Positions 49,206 through 64,000 of a stretch of DNA of 64,000 nt are shown here, in pieces. The notes beneath the pieces were generated by a model that ran no database searches, had not been told where the DNA came from, and saw only the letters and a program-made list of their open reading frames with translations. Location: NCBI GenBank assembly GCA_018920365.1, contig JAHLMM010000001.1, positions 199,628 to 263,627 of the forward strand, read 5' to 3'. Source of the stretch: Candidatus Aenigmatarchaeota archaeon (GTDB taxonomy: Archaea > Aenigmatarchaeota > Aenigmatarchaeia > CG10238-14). A program made the position numbers and the translations under genes. The number at the start of each line of letters is the position of its first letter. Within the stretch, counting starts at the first letter, position 1.

Positions 49206-49296
49206 TAGCCCCGAGCGGATTCGAACCGCTGTCAACGGGTCCAAAGCCCGCTATCCTTGGCCATTGTCCTGGTTAAACCATCTAGACGACGGGGCT
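49206..49296 (-). tRNA. tRNA-Gln (anticodon TTG) with a ~17-nt insertion in the D-loop, a putative non-canonical intron.
   Basis: Minus-strand sequence AGCCCCG-TC-GTCT-[AGATGG TTTAACCAGGACAATGG CCAA]-GGAT-A-GCGGG-CTTTGGA-CCCGT-TGAC-AGCGG-TTCGAAT-CCGCT-CGGGGCT-A. It has the A1-U72 pair and discriminator A typical of archaeal tRNA-Gln. The total is 91 nt. Confidence 0.7.
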
Positions 49297-55864: not shown

Positions 55865-57274
55865 ATGGTGTTTGATTTGAGAAAAATGCTTATTTTTGCA
55901 TTTGTTTTAATACTTTTATCATCAGTAAATGCTGTTGTTATTGAATTCACTCAAGTTCCTGATACTATATATACACTTGAAAAAACAGAAATTAAATTTA
56001 AAATAACAAACGATGGTAGTAAAAAAGACACATACTATATTGGCGTTTGGCCAACAAATTGGGTAATGCTTGAAAAGTATTTTGTAATTTTAAATCCTGG
56101 AGAATCAGAAATTGTATCTTTTGTTGTTGAGCCACCAATAGATTCAAACATAGGTAATGTTATATTTACTGTTACAGCAAGATCAACTGATACAAAGGAT
56201 TATGGGTCAAACGATGTTGTTTTGAATATAAGAAGGAGAACAGGTACATACATATCACAGCTAAAGTTAAATCAAGAAATTTTAAAACCAGGAGACACGC
56301 TTGTAATTCAGCCTCTTGTTGTTAATTTAGACAAAACTCAAAGCAAAAGAGTGATAATATCAGCTAAAATATTCAAAGAGGATAAATTGATAAAATCTAT
56401 AGAAGAAGAGGCTTTGATACAACCAGCATCAACAAAAACAGTGTCATTTCCATTTGAAGTGAAGAACATTCACACTTATGGCACATACAATGTCCAGGTT
56501 TTCATGACAGATGTATATGGCTCACCTATACATTCCAAATCTGCAAGTTTTGTAATAAAGAAATTTGACAATTTTCAGGAGAATAAATATGTTGATTATG
56601 GTTTTCTTGAAAGTACGTTCACAATAAATATTACAAATAAAGGTAATGTTCCAGGAGCATCATATATAGTTACAGAATCAATGCCAAAAATTTCTAAATA
56701 TTTCTTTTATCCAGAAAAAGAACCAGATTTGTCTGAAACAACTGATAACAGAGTGGTGTATAGCTGGAAAATTAGTGGTTTAGATCCAGATGAAACAGCT
56801 ACGATAAAATACAAGTTAAGATTTACTAATGTTGCAATAGCTATATTTTTGTCTCTTTTATTGATATCATTAATTATAACAATATTTCACAAGCCTACAT
56901 TGATGAAAAAATATTCTTCTTTGATAAAACCTGATAAAGAGACTTTGATTACGCTTCATGTAAAGAATAATTCAATAAGAGACATTGAAAACATTATAGT
57001 TAAAGATACTATACCATCAGTGTTTGCCATAATAAAAGAGTTTGATACCTTAAAACCAGAAGTAAAGACAACTCAAACAGGAACAGTGCTTTTGTGGAAG
57101 ATTGATAAACTGAAACCAAAAGAAGACAGAGTGTTGACTTATAAGATAAAACCTGTTGTCAATATAGAGGGTAAGCCAAAACTACCAAAAGCACACTTTA
57201 GCTATAAGCTTGGAAAGACAATAATACACAAAGTCGCAGAAAAAATAGTTCTTTTTTCGAAAAGAGTTAAATGA
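55865..57274 (+). CDS. Cell-surface protein (signal peptide, beta-rich repeats, C-terminal TM anchor).
   Basis: Signal peptide (LIFAFVLILLSSVNA). DUF11/CARDB-like repeats are present. A TM helix (IAIAIFLSLLLISLIITIF) lies near the C-terminus. Confidence 0.45.
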   Translation: MVFDLRKMLIFAFVLILLSSVNAVVIEFTQVPDTIYTLEKTEIKFKITNDGSKKDTYYIGVWPTNWVMLEKYFVILNPGESEIVSFVVEPPIDSNIGNVIFTVTARSTDTKDYGSNDVVLNIRRRTGTYISQLKLNQEILKPGDTLVIQPLVVNLDKTQSKRVIISAKIFKEDKLIKSIEEEALIQPASTKTVSFPFEVKNIHTYGTYNVQVFMTDVYGSPIHSKSASFVIKKFDNFQENKYVDYGFLESTFTINITNKGNVPGASYIVTESMPKISKYFFYPEKEPDLSETTDNRVVYSWKISGLDPDETATIKYKLRFTNVAIAIFLSLLLISLIITIFHKPTLMKKYSSLIKPDKETLITLHVKNNSIRDIENIIVKDTIPSVFAIIKEFDTLKPEVKTTQTGTVLLWKIDKLKPKEDRVLTYKIKPVVNIEGKPKLPKAHFSYKLGKTIIHKVAEKIVLFSKRVK

Positions 57275-57304: not shown

Positions 57305-57427
57305 ATATTATTGACCCCCTGTAGCTCAACGGTAGAGCATTCGGCTGTAGGCATTTGCATATGCATTTGCCACCGGCATTTGCTCGCAGAAACCGAAGGG
57401 TTGCTGGTTCAAATCCGGCCGGGGGGA
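57305..57427 (+). tRNA. tRNA-Tyr (anticodon GTA) with a 51-nt intron at the canonical 37/38 position.
   Basis: The C1–G72 pair is the archaeal/eukaryal Tyr identity element. D-arm GCTC-AACGGTA-GAGC. Anticodon stem TTCGG/CCGAA with loop CTGTAG-[intron 57341–57391]-A. T-arm GCTGG-TTCAAAT-CCGGC. Discriminator A. Confidence 0.8.
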
Positions 57428-57504: not shown

Positions 57505-57630
57505 ATAATCACATGGTTGGCGACCAAAACGAAAAGGAAACACCCGTTCCCATTTCGAACACGGAAGTTAAGCTTTTCGGTGATTTGAGTTGTACTGCAT
57601 TCGTGCGGGAAGCTCAAGACGTTGCCAACC
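57505..57630 (+). rRNA. rrf: 5S ribosomal RNA (unlinked, standalone).
   Basis: The text GGTTGGCGACC…CACCCGTTCCCATTTCGAACACGGAAGTTAAGC…GTACTGCATTCGTGCGGGAAGC…GTTGCCAACC has the conserved archaeal 5S loop-C / helix III-IV sequence. The 5' and 3' ends are complementary (helix I). Confidence 0.85.
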
Positions 57631-57845: not shown

Positions 57846-58094
57846 TTGAAAGACGAAATGAAAATAGATGTTTTATCTCATGAATTGGTACCAAAGCATT
57901 ACATTGTTTCTGAAGAGGAAAAACAAAAAATAAAAGAGAAATACAAAATAGACAAAGACAACAAATTTCCACAAATAAAAGCAAAGGATCCTGTTGTAAA
58001 AGCAATAGGCGCAAAACCCGGTGATATAATAAAAATAGTGAGAAAAAGCAATGTAGCAAAAGAAATTGTCTATTATAGAATTGTTGTGGAGTGA
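57846..58094 (+). CDS. rpoH: DNA-directed RNA polymerase subunit H (Rpb5 homolog).
   Basis: The text HELVPKHYIVSEEEK…KDPVVKAIGAKPGDIIKIVRKSNVAKEIVYYRIVV is the RpoH/Rpb5 C-terminal domain signature. It is the first gene of the rpoH-B-A operon. Confidence 0.85.
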   Translation: MKDEMKIDVLSHELVPKHYIVSEEEKQKIKEKYKIDKDNKFPQIKAKDPVVKAIGAKPGDIIKIVRKSNVAKEIVYYRIVVE

Positions 58095-58098
58095 TATT

Positions 58099-59610
58099 AT
58101 GAATGAATATATGACTTTGTTAAAATCGTTTGCACGCGACGAAGGTCTGATTAGATTTCAGATAGAATCCTACAATGACTTTATAGAAAACAGAATACCA
58201 AACATCATAAAACAAATAAAAGAAATTAAACCAGAAGTTCCTGACTTGGGAGAGTTTAGAATTAAATTAGGTAAGTTCAAAGTGGGAAAACCATTAGGTA
58301 CAGATATATGGGGTCCTTGGACGAAAGAGGCAGACGGTTCAGAAAGACCAATATTGCCTCAAGAATCGAGAATAAGAAATCTAACATATTCTGCTCCAAT
58401 GTATCTTGAAATGACACCAAACTTGAATGGTATAGATAGCGAAACAATTACAGTTAATTTTGGTGATTTGCCTGTCATGCTCAAATCAAAAATATGTCCA
58501 TTGTCGAAAATGGATAGGCAAGAGTTAATCAGAGTTGGAGAAGATCCAGATGATCCAGGAGGTTATTTTATTGTAAATGGTACAGAAAGAGTACTAGTTT
58601 TGATTGAAGAAATATCACCAAATAAAATTCTAGTCGAGTCACCAAGCACACCAAATGTAACAAACATAGCTAGAATACATTCAGAAAGAGATGGTTATAT
58701 TCAAAGACATATAATTGAAAGGAGAAACGATGGCATTATTAGAATAAATTTTGCAAATGTCAACAAAATGCCTATAGTAATTTTACTAAGGGCACTCGGA
58801 TTAGAGACAGATAAAGATATAATAACATTTTTGTCAGATGATCCAGAAGTGCAACAAGAGTTTTATCCAAATTTATTCGAGACGCAATCAGCAACATCAA
58901 AAGAAGCAATAGAAGAAATAGCAGATTTTCTAAAAATAACACAAAAAGAATATAGACAAGACAAAGTCAACAAGTTATTGGATAAATATTTGCTTCCTCA
59001 TTTAGGTCAAGATAAAAAATATAGAATAAACAAAGCATTGTATTTGGCAAAGGCAACAGAAAAAATAATTAAAAATCATCTAAAGAAAGTACCAAAGGAT
59101 GACATTGACCATTATTCGAACAAAAGATTGAAATTGTCAGGAGATTTATTGGAAATATTATTTAGATCTGTGCTGCTTGGTAAATGGGGATTGATAACTA
59201 GAATAACTTACAATTATCAAAAATTAACAAAAAGAGGAAGATTTCCACCCCTGCAATCAATAGTTGAATCAAATGTCTTGACAAATCAAATAATTTCAGC
59301 CATAGCAATAGGCTCATGGGTTGGCGGAAGGACAGGCGTTTCTCAGAGACTTGAAAGAGGAAGCTTTGTTAAAACAGTTTCTCATACAAGAAATGTATTA
59401 TCGCCGTTAACATCAACTCAAGAACACTTTGAAGCAAGAGTTTTGCATCCAACTCAATGGGGAAAAATAGATCCATCACAAACACCAGAAGGTGCAACAA
59501 TTGGGTTAAGAAAATATCTAGCTATAATGGGTCAAATAACAAAGGGTGCAACTGAAAAAGAAGTGAAAATCTTGGAAGATATTTTGTTAAAAGAGGTTGA
59601 TAAAAAATGA
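58099..59610 (+). CDS. rpoB2: DNA-directed RNA polymerase subunit B'' (N-terminal half of split subunit B).
   Basis: Begins MNEYMTLLKSFARDEGLIRFQIESYNDFIE…. It contains protrusion/lobe domain sequences. The stop overlaps the next start (ATGA). The ORF-track start at 58066 overlaps the rpoH stop. The ATG at 58099 is the more likely start. Confidence 0.85.
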   Translation: MNEYMTLLKSFARDEGLIRFQIESYNDFIENRIPNIIKQIKEIKPEVPDLGEFRIKLGKFKVGKPLGTDIWGPWTKEADGSERPILPQESRIRNLTYSAPMYLEMTPNLNGIDSETITVNFGDLPVMLKSKICPLSKMDRQELIRVGEDPDDPGGYFIVNGTERVLVLIEEISPNKILVESPSTPNVTNIARIHSERDGYIQRHIIERRNDGIIRINFANVNKMPIVILLRALGLETDKDIITFLSDDPEVQQEFYPNLFETQSATSKEAIEEIADFLKITQKEYRQDKVNKLLDKYLLPHLGQDKKYRINKALYLAKATEKIIKNHLKKVPKDDIDHYSNKRLKLSGDLLEILFRSVLLGKWGLITRITYNYQKLTKRGRFPPLQSIVESNVLTNQIISAIAIGSWVGGRTGVSQRLERGSFVKTVSHTRNVLSPLTSTQEHFEARVLHPTQWGKIDPSQTPEGATIGLRKYLAIMGQITKGATEKEVKILEDILLKEVDKK

Positions 59611-62600
59611 CTGATGTGTTTTTTGATGGAAAATATTTTGGAAGTGTTAAGGACCCGGTAAAATTAGTTAATTCAATAAGGGAAAAGAGAAGAAAAGGTC
59701 AATTGTCAGATCAGATTAATGCATCATATCTTGAACACTTTGATATAGTAATGATATCTACAGATTCTGGTAGAGCAAGAAGACCATTAATAGTAGTCGA
59801 AAACGGAAAACCAAAATTGACAAAAGAACATTTAAACATGCTTGAGAGTGGAAAGATAAAATGGAGTGATTTGATTTCTCAAGGTATAATAGAATATTTG
59901 GATGCAACTGAAGAAGAAAATGCATTGATTGCTTTAAAACCAGAAGATTTAACACAAAAACACACACATTTGGAATTAGATCCCACAATAATAATGGGTG
60001 TTGCTACATCTCTTGTTCCATTTGCAGAATTTAACAGAGGAGACAGAGTAAATTTTGGCGCAAAAATGATAGGCCAAGCGATAGGTATGTATTCAATAAA
60101 CTTTCCTGTTAGAGTTGACACAAAATCAAATATAATGATATATCCTCAAGTGCCTATTGTAAAGACACACATGAATGATATAATAAATGATCAAGATCAT
60201 CCTGGCGGTCACAATGTAGTTATTGCAATGATGCCGTTTTTGGGTTATAACATGGAGGATGCTGTTGTCATAAACAAATCATCCATTGAAAGAGGGTTGT
60301 TTTGGTCATACATGTTCAGATCATATGAAGCCGAGGAAAAAAGATATTTGGGTGGTCAAGAGGATATAATAGGAATACCTGAACCTGGAATAAGAGGTTA
60401 TGCTGGTGAAGATGCGTATAAACATTTACCAGAAGATGGTATAGTAAATCCTGAAACAAAACTCAAAAAAGAGGATGTTATAATAGGCAAATCATCACCG
60501 CTGAGATTCTTGGGTAGTTTAGATCAATTCACAACAGGCTTGGAAAATATAAGAGAAACTTCTGTTAGACTAAAACATGGAACAGAAGGTATAGTTGATA
60601 GAGTTTTTATTACAGAAAGTTTTGAAGGAAATAAACTTGTAAAAGTTGTTGTGAGAGATTTGAAAATACCTGAATTAGGAGATAAATTTGCCAGCAGACA
60701 TGGACAAAAAGGCGTTTTAGGTTTAATAATAAATCAGGAAGAATTACCATTCACAGAAGATGGTATTACACCTGACATAATTTTTAATCCTCATGGCATA
60801 CCATCTAGAATGACAATAGGGCAGATTTTAGAAATATTATCAAGCAAGGTAGGTGCTTTGACTGGTAAAAGGATAACAAGTTCTGCATTCCATCCTTTTG
60901 ATGAAAAGACAATAAGAGAAACTTTGAAAAAATATGGGTTTGATGATGATGGAAAAGAGTTTATGTATGACAGCAGAAATGGCCAAAAATTGATAAATAA
61001 AATCCTAATAGGAGAGATATATTATCAGAAACTAGATCATCTTGTTTCAAACAAAATGTATTCAAGATCAAAAGGTCCTGTGACACTTTTGACAAAACAA
61101 CCAACAGAAGGAAAATCAAAAATGGGTGGTTTGAGACTAGGTGAAATGGAAAAAGACTGTTTAATTGCACACGGTGCTTCGTTGCTTTTGAAGGAAAGAT
61201 TTGATTCAGATAAGATAATGATATCAATATGCAAAGATTGTGGTATAGAAGCTATAAATGATAGGGTTAAAAATAAAAAATTCTGCCCAATGTGTGGTGG
61301 TTCAAAGACTGTTGATATTGACATGTCATATGCTTTCAAACTTTTACTAGACGAGCTAAAAAGCATGGCAATATATCCAAAAATAATTGTTGATGAGGAT
61401 TTGGGAATTATTGATAAAATGGTGTTTGGTATATTAACACCTGAAATGATAAAGAAAATATCAGCATCAAAAATAAGTAAAACAGAATTGTATGATCAAG
61501 AAGGCTATCCTGTTGAAGGAGGCTTGATGGATCCAAGACTTGGCGTTATAGATCCTGGATTGAGATGCAGAACATGCGGTGGAACAGTTGGTGATTGCAA
61601 AGGTCATTTCGGATACCTTGAATTGACAAAACCAGTGATACATGTAAATTACGCAAAGCTAATTTACAATATTTTAAGGTTCACATGCAGAAAATGCAAC
61701 AAGGTTTTGATAAGTCCTGATGATGTTGCAAAGTTCAAAGAAGGCAAAAAGTCAATGAAGAGACTAAAGACATTCATAAAATCAACATGCCCATATTGCA
61801 AAGAAAAACAGGGTAAGATAAAATACATCAAACCTACTACATATCAGGAAGATTCTGAAATATTGACAGCAGTGCAAGTAAGAGAAAGATTGGAAAAAAT
61901 ACCTGATAGCGAGCTAGAATATTTTGGTCTTAGAAAAATGAGGCCTGAAAATTTGGTTTTAACACTACTTCCAGTTCCACCAGTAACTGTGAGACCTTCT
62001 ATAACTTTGGAAACAGGTGAAAGATCAGAAGATGATTTGACACACAAGCTTGTAGATATTGTTAGAATAAACAAAAGATTGAGGGAAAATATAGAGTTGG
62101 GTGCACCTGATTTTATAATACAAGATTTATGGGAGCTTTTACAATATCACGTTGCAACTTATATGAATAATGAAATAACGGGCGTACCACCAGCTAGACA
62201 TAGATCAGGAAGAGTTTTGAAGACATTGGCACAAAGATTAAAGACAAAAGAAGGAAGATTTAGAAGCAATTTGATTGGTAAGAGAGTTAACTTTTCTGCA
62301 AGAACAGTTGTTAGCCCAGATCCATTTTTAGATATAAATGAGGTAGGCGTACCATTATCAGTTGCAACAGAATTGACCTTACCAGTTGTTGTAAATGAAA
62401 AGAATATTGAAAAGATAAGGCAGATGATAGAGAGATATCCAGAATGGCCAACAATAAATTATGTAAATAGACCAGATGGAAGAAGAAAGAAAGTCACAGA
62501 ATTGAACAAAGCTGATATAGCAAAAGAAATAGAACCTGGTTATATTGTTGAAAAACAGATAGAGAATGGCGATTGGGCAGTTTTCAATAGACAGCCATCA

Positions 62601-63887
62601 TTACACAGGATGAGCATGATGGGCCATAAGGTAAGAGTAATGCCTTATAATACATTTAGACTGAATTTATCGGTTGCACCGCCTTATAATGCAGATTTTG
62701 ATGGAGATGAGATGAACCTTCACATACCTCAAACAAAAGAGGCTCAAGTTGAAACAAAAATGCTTACAGAAGTTTCGACACAATTTAGAAGCCCAAGATT
62801 TAGTAGTGTTATAATAGGTGCAATAAATGATCATATAACAGGCTTGTACATACTGACAACAAAAATGAAGTTTTCAAGAAAAGATACAGTCTCTATTGTA
62901 AAGGCATGTGATCCAGAAATTCAAGTTCCTGACAAAAAAGAATTTACAGGAAAGGAAATATTCAGCTTATTCTTGCCAAAAGATTTTGATTTTGAATATT
63001 CAAAAGGAGATTTGAAAGTTGTGATAGAAAACGGTCAACTAGTAGAAGGAATAATCGATGAAAACGGTTTGGGTGCATTTAAAGGAAAACTGCTTGATGA
63101 AATTGAGAGAAGATATGGTGGTGAATTTACAAGGAAGTTGCTCTTTAACATGACAAAACTTTCTCTTGAAGTGTTGATGAGATATGGCTTTACTACTTCA
63201 ATATCTGATTATGACATTGATGAGAAGATAGTAAAACAAATAAATGATTTGCTTGAAAATGCAAAGAAAGAGATAAATGACATGATAAAAGATTTCAAAA
63301 AAGGCAAGATAAAAGAAATAGTAGGAAGAACAAAGAGAGAGACATTTGAAACATTGGTTAAAATAAAATTGGCTGATTTGCTAAATCAGATAACAACACT
63401 TGTCGCAAAGAACATAAAAGAGAATTCAATTTACATAATGGCTAAAAGTGGTGCTAGAGGCAGTCTAGTTAACATGGTTCAGTGCATTGCATGCCTTGGT
63501 CAAGAAACAATTAGAGGTGAAAGAATAAGGATAGGTTATTATAAAAGAACTTTGCCTCATTTTGAAAAAGGTGATATGAGTTTAGAATCAAGAGGTTTTG
63601 TTAGACACGGCTATAAAAATGGTTTGACACCGTTTGAATTTTTCTTTGATGCAATGAACAGTAGAGAAGGTCTTATGGATAAATCTTTAAAGACAAGACA
63701 TAGTGGTTATCTTGAAAGAAGATTGATAGGTGCATTAAAAGATTTGAAAGTAGAGTACGATGGTACTGTAAGAGATGCTTCAAAGAAAATTGTTCAGTTT
63801 ATTGCTGCTGAAGATGGTTTAGACCCATCGAGAATACAAAAAGGTGGTATAGATGTCGGAAAAATCGCTGAAAGATTATTTGGATGA
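59607..63887 (+). CDS. rpoB1-rpoA1: In-frame fusion of RNA polymerase subunit B' (residues 1–604) and subunit A' (from M605). It encodes a single 1426-aa polypeptide.
   Basis: The B' portion ends …MSYAFKLLLDELKSMAIYPKIIVDEDLGIIDK. The frame runs directly into MVFGILTPEMIKK…GGLMDPRLGVIDPGLRCRTCGG…GHFGYLELTKPVIHV, the canonical A' N-terminus with its Zn-binding motif. No stop codon lies between them. The A' catalytic NADFDGDEM motif is present. The ORF ends …AERLFG-TGA. Confidence 0.85.
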   Translation: MTDVFFDGKYFGSVKDPVKLVNSIREKRRKGQLSDQINASYLEHFDIVMISTDSGRARRPLIVVENGKPKLTKEHLNMLESGKIKWSDLISQGIIEYLDATEEENALIALKPEDLTQKHTHLELDPTIIMGVATSLVPFAEFNRGDRVNFGAKMIGQAIGMYSINFPVRVDTKSNIMIYPQVPIVKTHMNDIINDQDHPGGHNVVIAMMPFLGYNMEDAVVINKSSIERGLFWSYMFRSYEAEEKRYLGGQEDIIGIPEPGIRGYAGEDAYKHLPEDGIVNPETKLKKEDVIIGKSSPLRFLGSLDQFTTGLENIRETSVRLKHGTEGIVDRVFITESFEGNKLVKVVVRDLKIPELGDKFASRHGQKGVLGLIINQEELPFTEDGITPDIIFNPHGIPSRMTIGQILEILSSKVGALTGKRITSSAFHPFDEKTIRETLKKYGFDDDGKEFMYDSRNGQKLINKILIGEIYYQKLDHLVSNKMYSRSKGPVTLLTKQPTEGKSKMGGLRLGEMEKDCLIAHGASLLLKERFDSDKIMISICKDCGIEAINDRVKNKKFCPMCGGSKTVDIDMSYAFKLLLDELKSMAIYPKIIVDEDLGIIDKMVFGILTPEMIKKISASKISKTELYDQEGYPVEGGLMDPRLGVIDPGLRCRTCGGTVGDCKGHFGYLELTKPVIHVNYAKLIYNILRFTCRKCNKVLISPDDVAKFKEGKKSMKRLKTFIKSTCPYCKEKQGKIKYIKPTTYQEDSEILTAVQVRERLEKIPDSELEYFGLRKMRPENLVLTLLPVPPVTVRPSITLETGERSEDDLTHKLVDIVRINKRLRENIELGAPDFIIQDLWELLQYHVATYMNNEITGVPPARHRSGRVLKTLAQRLKTKEGRFRSNLIGKRVNFSARTVVSPDPFLDINEVGVPLSVATELTLPVVVNEKNIEKIRQMIERYPEWPTINYVNRPDGRRKKVTELNKADIAKEIEPGYIVEKQIENGDWAVFNRQPSLHRMSMMGHKVRVMPYNTFRLNLSVAPPYNADFDGDEMNLHIPQTKEAQVETKMLTEVSTQFRSPRFSSVIIGAINDHITGLYILTTKMKFSRKDTVSIVKACDPEIQVPDKKEFTGKEIFSLFLPKDFDFEYSKGDLKVVIENGQLVEGIIDENGLGAFKGKLLDEIERRYGGEFTRKLLFNMTKLSLEVLMRYGFTTSISDYDIDEKIVKQINDLLENAKKEINDMIKDFKKGKIKEIVGRTKRETFETLVKIKLADLLNQITTLVAKNIKENSIYIMAKSGARGSLVNMVQCIACLGQETIRGERIRIGYYKRTLPHFEKGDMSLESRGFVRHGYKNGLTPFEFFFDAMNSREGLMDKSLKTRHSGYLERRLIGALKDLKVEYDGTVRDASKKIVQFIAAEDGLDPSRIQKGGIDVGKIAERLFG

Positions 63888-64000
63888 ATTACCTAAAAGT
63901 ATAGTTGAGCAAATCGATCAAGTTTCATCTAAAATGAAATTGAATGAAAAACAAAAAGAACAGCTTACAAAAGAAGTTATTAAAGAATATTTCAAAAGTG
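63853..64000 (+). CDS. rpoA2: RNA polymerase subunit A'' (5' fragment; continues past the window end).
   Basis: An ATG at 63853 lies in the +1 frame relative to A' and overlaps its last 35 nt. The translation is MSEKSLKDYLDELPKSIVEQIDQ…. The operon position after rpoA' supports the call. Confidence 0.55.
   Translation, partial: MSEKSLKDYLDELPKSIVEQIDQVSSKMKLNEKQKEQLTKEVIKEYFKS

Follow-up and report, generated by a model that had tools for sequence, protein, structure and literature searches.

A 64,000-nucleotide stretch of a Candidatus Aenigmatarchaeota genome (contig JAHLMM010000001.1; hereafter the window) carries the genes for RNA polymerase (RNAP) subunits B' and A' as one uninterrupted open reading frame (ORF) of 1426 amino acids (aa). 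It is very probable that this B'–A' fusion is genuine and evolutionarily maintained, and it is lineage-typical, conserved yet labile, and not universal. We lean, cautiously, towards the wider reading that it represents an undescribed, near-ancestral trait of Aenigmatarchaeota and the first natural archaeal fusion of both catalytic subunits, which in one subclade takes the form of a B–A' chain some 1.9 thousand residues long and which has undergone at least about six gains or losses, each by mutation at the one stop or start junction.

The fused rpoB'–rpoA' gene and its homologues

The fused gene and the features within it are as follows.

59607..63887, + strand: fused rpoB'–rpoA' ORF, 1426 aa; the coordinates take in the stop codon
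59607..61394, + strand: B' (Rpo2C) module, residues 1-596, ending about 2 residues short of the family-model C-terminus
61128-61157, + strand: hybrid-binding motif GLRLGEMEKD, residues 508-517 (motif search)
61230..61298, + strand: C-terminal zinc ribbon of B', CKDC...CPMC, residues 542-563, part of the clamp (motif search)
61395..61406, + strand: seam, E597-D598-L599-G600, the sole residues assignable to neither subunit (gap between the model matches)
61407..63884, + strand: A' (Rpo1N) module, residues 601-1426, without only the first few N-terminal residues
61419..61421, + strand: ATG of Met605, an ordinary internal codon (column 13 after YPK)
61566..61607, + strand: N-terminal zinc site of A', CRTC...C..H (clamp core), residues 654-667, invariant in the alignment
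62688..62708, + strand: catalytic Mg-binding motif of A', NADFDGD, residues 1028-1034, nearly invariant in the alignment

The ORF listing and its translation showed that positions 61380-61425 lie in a single open frame (...SMAIYPKIIVDEDLGIIDKMVFGILTPEM...) free of in-frame stops. The junction of the fused ORF reads ...AFKLLLDELKSMAIYPKIIVDEDLGIIDKMVFGILTPEM..., again with no in-frame stop, the stretch of the protein that spans the seam E597-G600 is ...IIVDEDLGIIDK..., and the remaining two frames at the junction contain many stops. An earlier note on the window, made by a model from the letters (the original prediction), had described a 1426-aa B'–A' ORF with no stop between its halves, and this description was borne out by the ORF listing, by the frames and by the profile matches. 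Curated NCBIfam equivalog cutoffs served as the thresholds for family membership. TIGR03670 (rpoB_arch) matched residues 4-597 with model positions 1-597 of 599 (852 bits; equivalog cutoff 811), while the A' half was recognized both by NF006336 (RpoA'; residues 602-1423 with model positions 9-876 of 883, 1120 bits, equivalog cutoff 819) and by TIGR02390 (1105 bits, cutoff 1042.55). In a 41-sequence alignment C542, C545 and C560 were invariant, and the B' zinc ribbon and the GLRLGEMEKD motif were conserved across the 41 homologues. Because the matches are full-length and above the cutoffs, and because the zinc and catalytic motifs are present, both modules are, as judged from their sequences, complete and canonical archaeal subunits. 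The A' module does not constitute an independent polypeptide with its own start codon, there being no stop before it and no conserved start at the seam.

The protein is on record as an exact match under NCBI MBU5689806.1 / MEM5791925.1. The identical 1426-aa sequence occurs on three contigs, namely JAVZBP010000001.1 (GCA_038999715.1, 274 kilobases [kb]), one of 394 kb, and one of 15.5 kb in the Logan assembly of SRR27215045, which comes from an independent assembly pipeline. The window DNA was 100% identical over 8394 nucleotides (nt) to both the GCA_038999715.1 contig and the Logan assembly.

A protein search covering 5.8 billion proteins was then considered, for which the 120 best matches were listed. 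All 120 listed matches contained both Rpb2 and Rpb1 Pfam domains, and 116 of them aligned over 99-100% of the query at 52-87% identity; they derived from NCBI, JGI, ENA and Logan, on contigs of up to 783 kb. The majority (87 of the 116) were about 1417-1461 aa long and correspond to B'–A', while the other 29 were about 1909-1932 aa long and contained B'' domains as well, representing an unsplit B fused to A' (confirmed for the representative P0113). Two listed matches of 1608 and 1629 aa, at 99-100% coverage, appeared to be truncated N-terminally, and the remaining two (82 and 86% coverage) were fragments. The named homologues belonged almost all to Candidatus Aenigmatarchaeota (or Aenigmarchaeota) and were annotated only as 'subunit A'' or 'subunit B'. 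In a library of representatives at 50% identity all Aenigmatarchaeota fusions collapse to a single representative, P0069, which makes this library uninformative for counting independent fusions. The window's own protein was filed, in the 90%-identity collection, under a 50-aa representative alongside 50-aa Bacteroides proteins, and owing to this clustering error the homology search did not return it as its own best match.

The seam and the fold of the clamp

In phmmer alignments against the sequences of the Protein Data Bank (PDB), archaeal B chains of solved structures aligned to 2-7 residues from their C-terminus, at about residue 597 of the fusion (the closest solved B chain, 36ro_B, to within 2 residues), and A' chains of solved structures began to align at their own residue 4-7, at fusion residue I601. 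The segment IIDKMVFGIL is the counterpart of VIGSIEFGIL in Pyrococcus, and the true seam thus comprises about 3-4 residues (EDLG). The original prediction had instead proposed a 6-aa linker, GIIDK, leading into an initiator Met of A'. GIIDK has 5 residues and is not a linker, because the solved A' chains begin to align at I601, so that it is mostly homologous to the A' N-terminus. Met605 is incidental, because most relatives carry Ile at this position: the 67 homologues of the majority length class have 59 I, 6 M, 1 L and 1 V in this column. Of 107 fused homologues, only 34 have a Met anywhere around the seam and 73 have none. Both assignments, GIIDK as linker and Met605 as initiator, were ruled out on the strength of the solved A' chains and the relatives. 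The seam residues vary freely, the most variable junction columns being 7-9 after YPK (D598, L599 and G600 of the window protein), while all fused homologues keep a spacing of 64-67 residues between YAFK and (M/L)DPRLG, and 107 homologues fall into a seam length class of 33-36 residues.

The best PDB sequence match of the junction was 3QQC_A (phmmer, E 1e-58), whose alignment crossed the seam without a gap. Chain A of 3QQC is a recombinant Pyrococcus furiosus clamp in which B 1053-1115, A' 3-318 and A'' 334-371 are joined by short Gly/Ala/Ser linkers (Martinez-Rucobo et al., 2011; PMC3094117), and this clamp fusion was soluble, bound Spt4/5 and was crystallized (PMC3094117). This construct demonstrates by experiment that joining the B C-terminus to the A' N-terminus preserves the clamp. 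The natural fusion resembles 3QQC in making the same join with a very short linker; unlike the Aenigmatarchaeota protein, 3QQC is artificial, comprises clamp fragments only and also joins a C-terminal piece of A''. An AlphaFold2 model of residues 501-933, computed from the 41-sequence alignment, had a mean predicted local distance difference test score (pLDDT) of 69.5 and a predicted template modelling score of 0.71, with block pLDDT values of 79-90 across residues 581-620. In this model a strand (589-596) is followed by a four-residue turn (597-600; block pLDDT 79-86) and a second strand (601-609), so that the seam is confidently modelled as a β-turn linking the final B' strand to the first A' strand. 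When the model was compared with the PDB using Foldseek, the top match was again 3QQC_A (TM 0.69/0.78, root-mean-square deviation 2.9 Å, 366 columns), below which ranked archaeal A' chains and Rpb1 of Pol II. The suggestion in the original prediction that a short join is structurally plausible, both termini lying in the clamp, is therefore well supported by the 3QQC alignment, the modelled turn and the Foldseek match; the seam would need only a tight β-turn because in the clamp the strand that ends B adjoins the strand that begins A'.

From these data a course of events can be proposed. In the ancestor the stop of rpoB(') and the start of rpoA' would have lain 0-3 nt apart, often in the same frame, and once the stop was lost the end of B' would have run on, over a 3-4-residue seam, into A' from about its residue 4-6. 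The fused chain would adopt the normal clamp fold with the seam as a tight β-turn, as 3QQC partly demonstrates and the model partly predicts. Translation should yield one polypeptide of about 165 kDa, and the polymerase would consist of B'' (about 503-514 aa), B'–A' (1426 aa), A'' (375 aa) and the small subunits. Such a fusion would enforce 1:1 stoichiometry and, through co-translational pairing, couple the folding and assembly of the two catalytic subunits. Assembly of the Methanococcus maripaludis RNAP is hierarchical and stoichiometry-sensitive, with Rpo2''/2' recruited before Rpo1'/1'' (PMC13556214), and a B'–A' fusion would merge these two recruitment steps.

Distribution in the clade and rival explanations

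GTDB species representatives were scanned with the junction alignment, which returned 80 loci (given L numbers below), and each locus was classed by following the B frame as far as its stop and the A' frame in the upstream direction. The tblastn-based locus finder favours same-frame junctions and the 80 loci are biased that way, so the split fraction may be underestimated. An apparent rule that all outgroup B/A' junctions are same-frame is a selection artefact of this finder and was not used. A neighbour-joining tree was built from the last 560 aa of B' and 760 aa of A' with 100 bootstraps. The results showed that the window belongs to a clade of 24 sequences with 100% bootstrap support, which comprises 27 species representatives once partial loci are added. 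Of these, 19 are fused (L001-L007, L010, L012, L014, L016-L018, L021, L023, L025, L029, L030, L034) and eight are split (L008, L009, L011, L013, L015, L020, L066, L080), while the fusion was found in none of the 53 outgroup loci from other DPANN lineages, methanogens, Hadarchaeia and haloarchaea. As a trait of the clade the fusion thus holds for most members but is not universal, and within this monophyletic Aenigmatarchaeota group the position and length of the seam are common to independent genomes.

The split species occupy five places in the tree. L080 is sister to the window's group (100%) and L015 is sister to the fused full-B group (100%), and fused lineages surround L008, L009 and L066. 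On the concatenated tree L009 and L066 group with the fused L005/L006 at 98%, inside a wider fused group at 91%; in an A'-only tree that adds L008, the grouping of L008/L009/L066 with L005/L006 received 80% and the three split species formed a clade at 66%. L011 and L013 make up another group, and the placement of L020 is not settled by the tree. By parsimony about six events are required whichever state is ancestral, and at least eight if only gains are allowed. The split relatives have a stop, 0-3 nt and an ATG or GTG at exactly the seam position, as in GTA TGA AAG ATG (L009), GAG TAG GTG (L015), GAT TAA A ATG (L080) and GAT TGA T ATG (L066). By the parsimony count, the fused and separate states have switched repeatedly, and these junctions show why: one substitution or an indel of 1-2 nt turns either state into the other. 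The record of L066 (DAIDAX010000005.1) is titled 'bacterium isolate clean1851' yet bears an archaeal RNAP operon of the Aenigmatarchaeota clade, and this metagenome-assembled genome (MAG) is either mislabelled or contaminated.

The original prediction had itself named an assembly error that removed a stop codon as the alternative. A single base change suffices to remove a stop, and two close relatives, L080 (about 5x coverage) and L066 (about 12x), have separate genes in different frames, which lends some colour to a stop lost, or a frameshift compensated, in one low-coverage MAG. Such an artefact is nevertheless exceedingly improbable, and was rejected, because the fusion recurs in relatives and the identical sequence stands in three assemblies: the fused gene is not unique to one low-coverage assembly but is shared with the 274-kb NCBI MAG contig, the independent Logan assembly and, as protein, the 394-kb contig, and the check on related genomes found the same fusion in more than 115 diverged cluster representatives (52-87% identity) and in the 19 species representatives, from many projects, with a seam of varying sequence and constant length. 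It is also very improbable that the fused gene is a decaying or non-functional paralogue, with working rpoB' and rpoA' genes elsewhere in the genome. The portion examined is 64 kb of the genome only, which would allow for this, but the gene is part of the canonical operon of RNAP and ribosomal-protein genes, which is single-copy, both of its halves exceed the equivalog cutoffs with all catalytic and zinc motifs conserved, and its homologues remain strongly conserved over 1400 aa.

Certain points weigh against a maintained fusion that acts as a single chain. The fused chain is known from genes alone, and we infer from them that the enzyme contains it as a single polypeptide. Close to the seam, some fused genes, that of the window included, retain a GAGG-like motif (from the codons for K/D-E-D/E) together with a Met or TTG. 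The genes are separate in eight related species, so that the fusion need not answer a strong functional requirement and may be nearly neutral. The number and direction of the transitions are only approximate, as they come from neighbour-joining trees on the same two proteins. Even with a truly fused ORF, the enzyme could still contain separate B' and A' subunits, produced by internal initiation (at the TTG of L599 or the ATG of M605, with GAGGAT upstream) or by proteolysis at the turn. The Met found in the seam region of about a third of the fused homologues (34 of 107) fits such initiation, as does the repeated return to separate genes, which suggests that start signals are easily regained. 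We consider this unlikely, however: no seam position has a conserved start codon and 73 of the 107 have no Met there, the GAGGAT of the window either adjoins the TTG directly or sits 21 nt from the ATG, both poor spacings, ribosomes from upstream would still yield the full-length product, and the model predicts a tight, ordered β-turn at the seam rather than a flexible loop. That related species have gone back and forth between one chain and two genes shows that the fusion is not essential. The several reversions also make its advantage probably small or lineage-dependent; as either arrangement is a single mutation away, near-neutral drift at the junction is a reasonable alternative. A genuine fusion that is kept in most of the clade is, in our assessment, still the explanation to be preferred.

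Operon context and known large-subunit rearrangements

The genes that surround the fused ORF are listed below.

57516-57630: 5S rRNA (Rfam match), directly upstream of rpoH
57846..58094, + strand: rpoH (RNAP subunit H/Rpo5), first gene of the cluster; NCBIfam NF007129, 107.5 bits, cutoff 83
58099..59610, + strand: rpoB'' (N-terminal half of subunit B); NF007175 (RpoB''), 540 bits, cutoff 355, model positions 3-488 of 496
63853..64000, + strand: start of rpoA'', a separate gene with a 35-nt overlap with the end of the fused ORF, continuing past the window edge

On the identical contigs gene callers give rpoH 78-82 aa. For rpoB'' they begin at ATG 58099, where the mechanical ORF begins at TTG 58066, and the rpoB'' stop overlaps the ATG of the fused ORF in the sequence ATGA. 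The rpoA'' product on these contigs is 375 aa long with PF04998 and is followed by L30e, NusA, S12, S7 and EF-2, so that the operon order is the canonical rpoH-B''-[B'A']-A''-L30e-nusA-S12-S7-EF2. The original prediction had called the rpoH–rpoB''–rpoB' arrangement canonical for archaea; the order is indeed present here, but B'' and B' are typically separate in many Euryarchaeota and DPANN lineages, not in archaea at large. Also directly upstream of rpoH, Rfam calls a tRNA at 57315-57427, which at 113 nt is long enough for an intron, while ARAGORN in its bacterial setting called no tRNA upstream of rpoH. A second tRNA match, of 57 nt at 49206-49262 on the - strand (score 29.5 against an Rfam gathering threshold of 29, model positions 1-71), may be a shortened, split or in some other way atypical tRNA. 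A 469-aa ORF (55865-57274, + strand) with a hydrophobic N-terminal segment and only a faint CLIPPER Pfam match, which immediately precedes the RNA genes and the RNAP operon, is probably a surface or membrane protein.

The fusion matters to RNAP evolution, to DPANN phylogeny and to annotation. Public records name the fused proteins mostly as 'subunit A'' only, so that a genome can seem to lack rpoB', and marker sets built on separate RpoB and RpoA genes may handle Aenigmatarchaeota genomes wrongly. The fusion is a clear, though homoplastic, rare genomic change by which Aenigmatarchaeota can be placed and subdivided, and if it is truly near-ancestral it would offer both such a marker and a natural experiment on how linkage of the clamp halves affects assembly and regulation. 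It is a naturally occurring equivalent of the 3QQC construct and could make recombinant archaeal RNAP easier to produce. Taken with the assembly data from M. maripaludis (PMC13556214), it is conceivable that the fusion becomes fixed in reduced DPANN genomes because it guarantees that the subunits assemble co-translationally and in equimolar amounts.

Rearrangements of the large subunits are well known in Archaea, where the B''/B' split, the A'/A'' split and a secondary A'–A'' fusion in Pacearchaeota have been described (Da Cunha et al., 2017; PMC5484517) and where such splits and fusions have been used as rare genomic changes in phylogeny (PMC5484517). The B'–A' fusion is like the B''/B' and A'/A'' events in being a lineage-specific repartition of the catalytic subunits among genes; unlike those events, in which one ancestral subunit is divided or its parts are put together again, it joins two different subunits, an arrangement that is not reported for archaea in PMC5484517. 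A description of an archaeal B–A' fusion was not found in the open-access literature, subscription-only papers being outside the search, and a 2026 preprint on RNAP insertions in Aenigmarchaeota makes no mention of one; within the open-access literature, then, the statement in the original prediction that the fusion is undescribed for archaeal RNAP stands. Among the scanned loci, A'–A'' fusions with an A' frame of about 1080-1140 aa were seen in L027, L028, L037-L039, L042, L047, L053-L055, L059, L060, L062, L069-L074 and L076, in MAGs labelled Micrarchaeota, Pacearchaeota and Woesearchaeota, with B split in some and whole in others. DPANN lineages differ greatly in how their large-subunit genes are arranged.

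Single chains of the Rpb2::Rpb1 type are known from the cytoplasmic killer plasmids of yeast (pGKL2 Orf6), and a β::β'-like protein from Corynebacterium (Ruprich-Robert and Thuriaux, 2010; PMC2919709). These proteins likewise have the second-largest subunit first and the largest after it, but they are drastically reduced, divergent and non-canonical, whereas the Aenigmatarchaeota modules are full-length, canonical cellular subunits. Other architectures were noticed among the representatives. P0144 (2214 aa, found in Logan only, on an 18.7-kb contig) holds B (4-1068), A' and A'' (1872-2209) in one polypeptide at 28-35% identity to archaeal subunits and may be viral or belong to a very divergent lineage. 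P0233 (1665 aa, 10 contigs of up to 79 kb, named RPB2 by JGI) combines a complete B, about 32% identical to archaeal B, with the N-terminal half of A' only (model positions 5-442 of 883), a B–A fusion/split architecture of another kind. P0130 (1025 aa) is a Methanobacteriales-like B' (65% identical to L032) with a C-terminal extension of about 425 aa, rich in Cys-x2-Cys, in place of A'.

The closest known analogue, to which the original prediction also pointed, is found in Helicobacteraceae and Wolbachia, whose rpoB and rpoC genes are fused (β–β'; Zakharova et al., 1999; Lane and Darst, 2010, as cited in PMC7483510), and the comparison holds as an analogy rather than as family membership. In both cases the second-largest subunit runs in frame from its C-terminus into the N-terminus of the largest, at the homologous clamp junction, and in both the fused genes exist alongside relatives whose separate genes overlap or tightly abut. 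The fusion in Helicobacter pylori is reportedly dispensable, which would parallel the repeated reversions seen in Aenigmatarchaeota. The archaeal fusion differs from the bacterial one in having arisen in a different domain of life as an independent event, in a seam of only about 3-4 residues, and in its partners, archaeal B' (or unsplit B) and A', with a product that lacks A'' and, in this genome, B''. Membership in the bacterial fused β/β' families was rejected, the window protein scoring 332 bits against a cutoff of 5372 for NF007172 (PRK09603) and 308 against 4632 for NF011417 (PRK14844); only the shared double-psi barrel regions of these models of about 2850 aa matched it. The resemblance, on this analogy, is thus one of architecture and not of family. 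The known fusions of large subunits, bacterial β–β' and plasmid Rpb2::Rpb1, are hereby extended to cellular Archaea at the homologous junction, and recurrence at that junction suggests that it is the structurally easiest place to join the two subunits. The fusion reveals no new mechanism; what is new is the domain of life in which it occurs and the partners that it joins.

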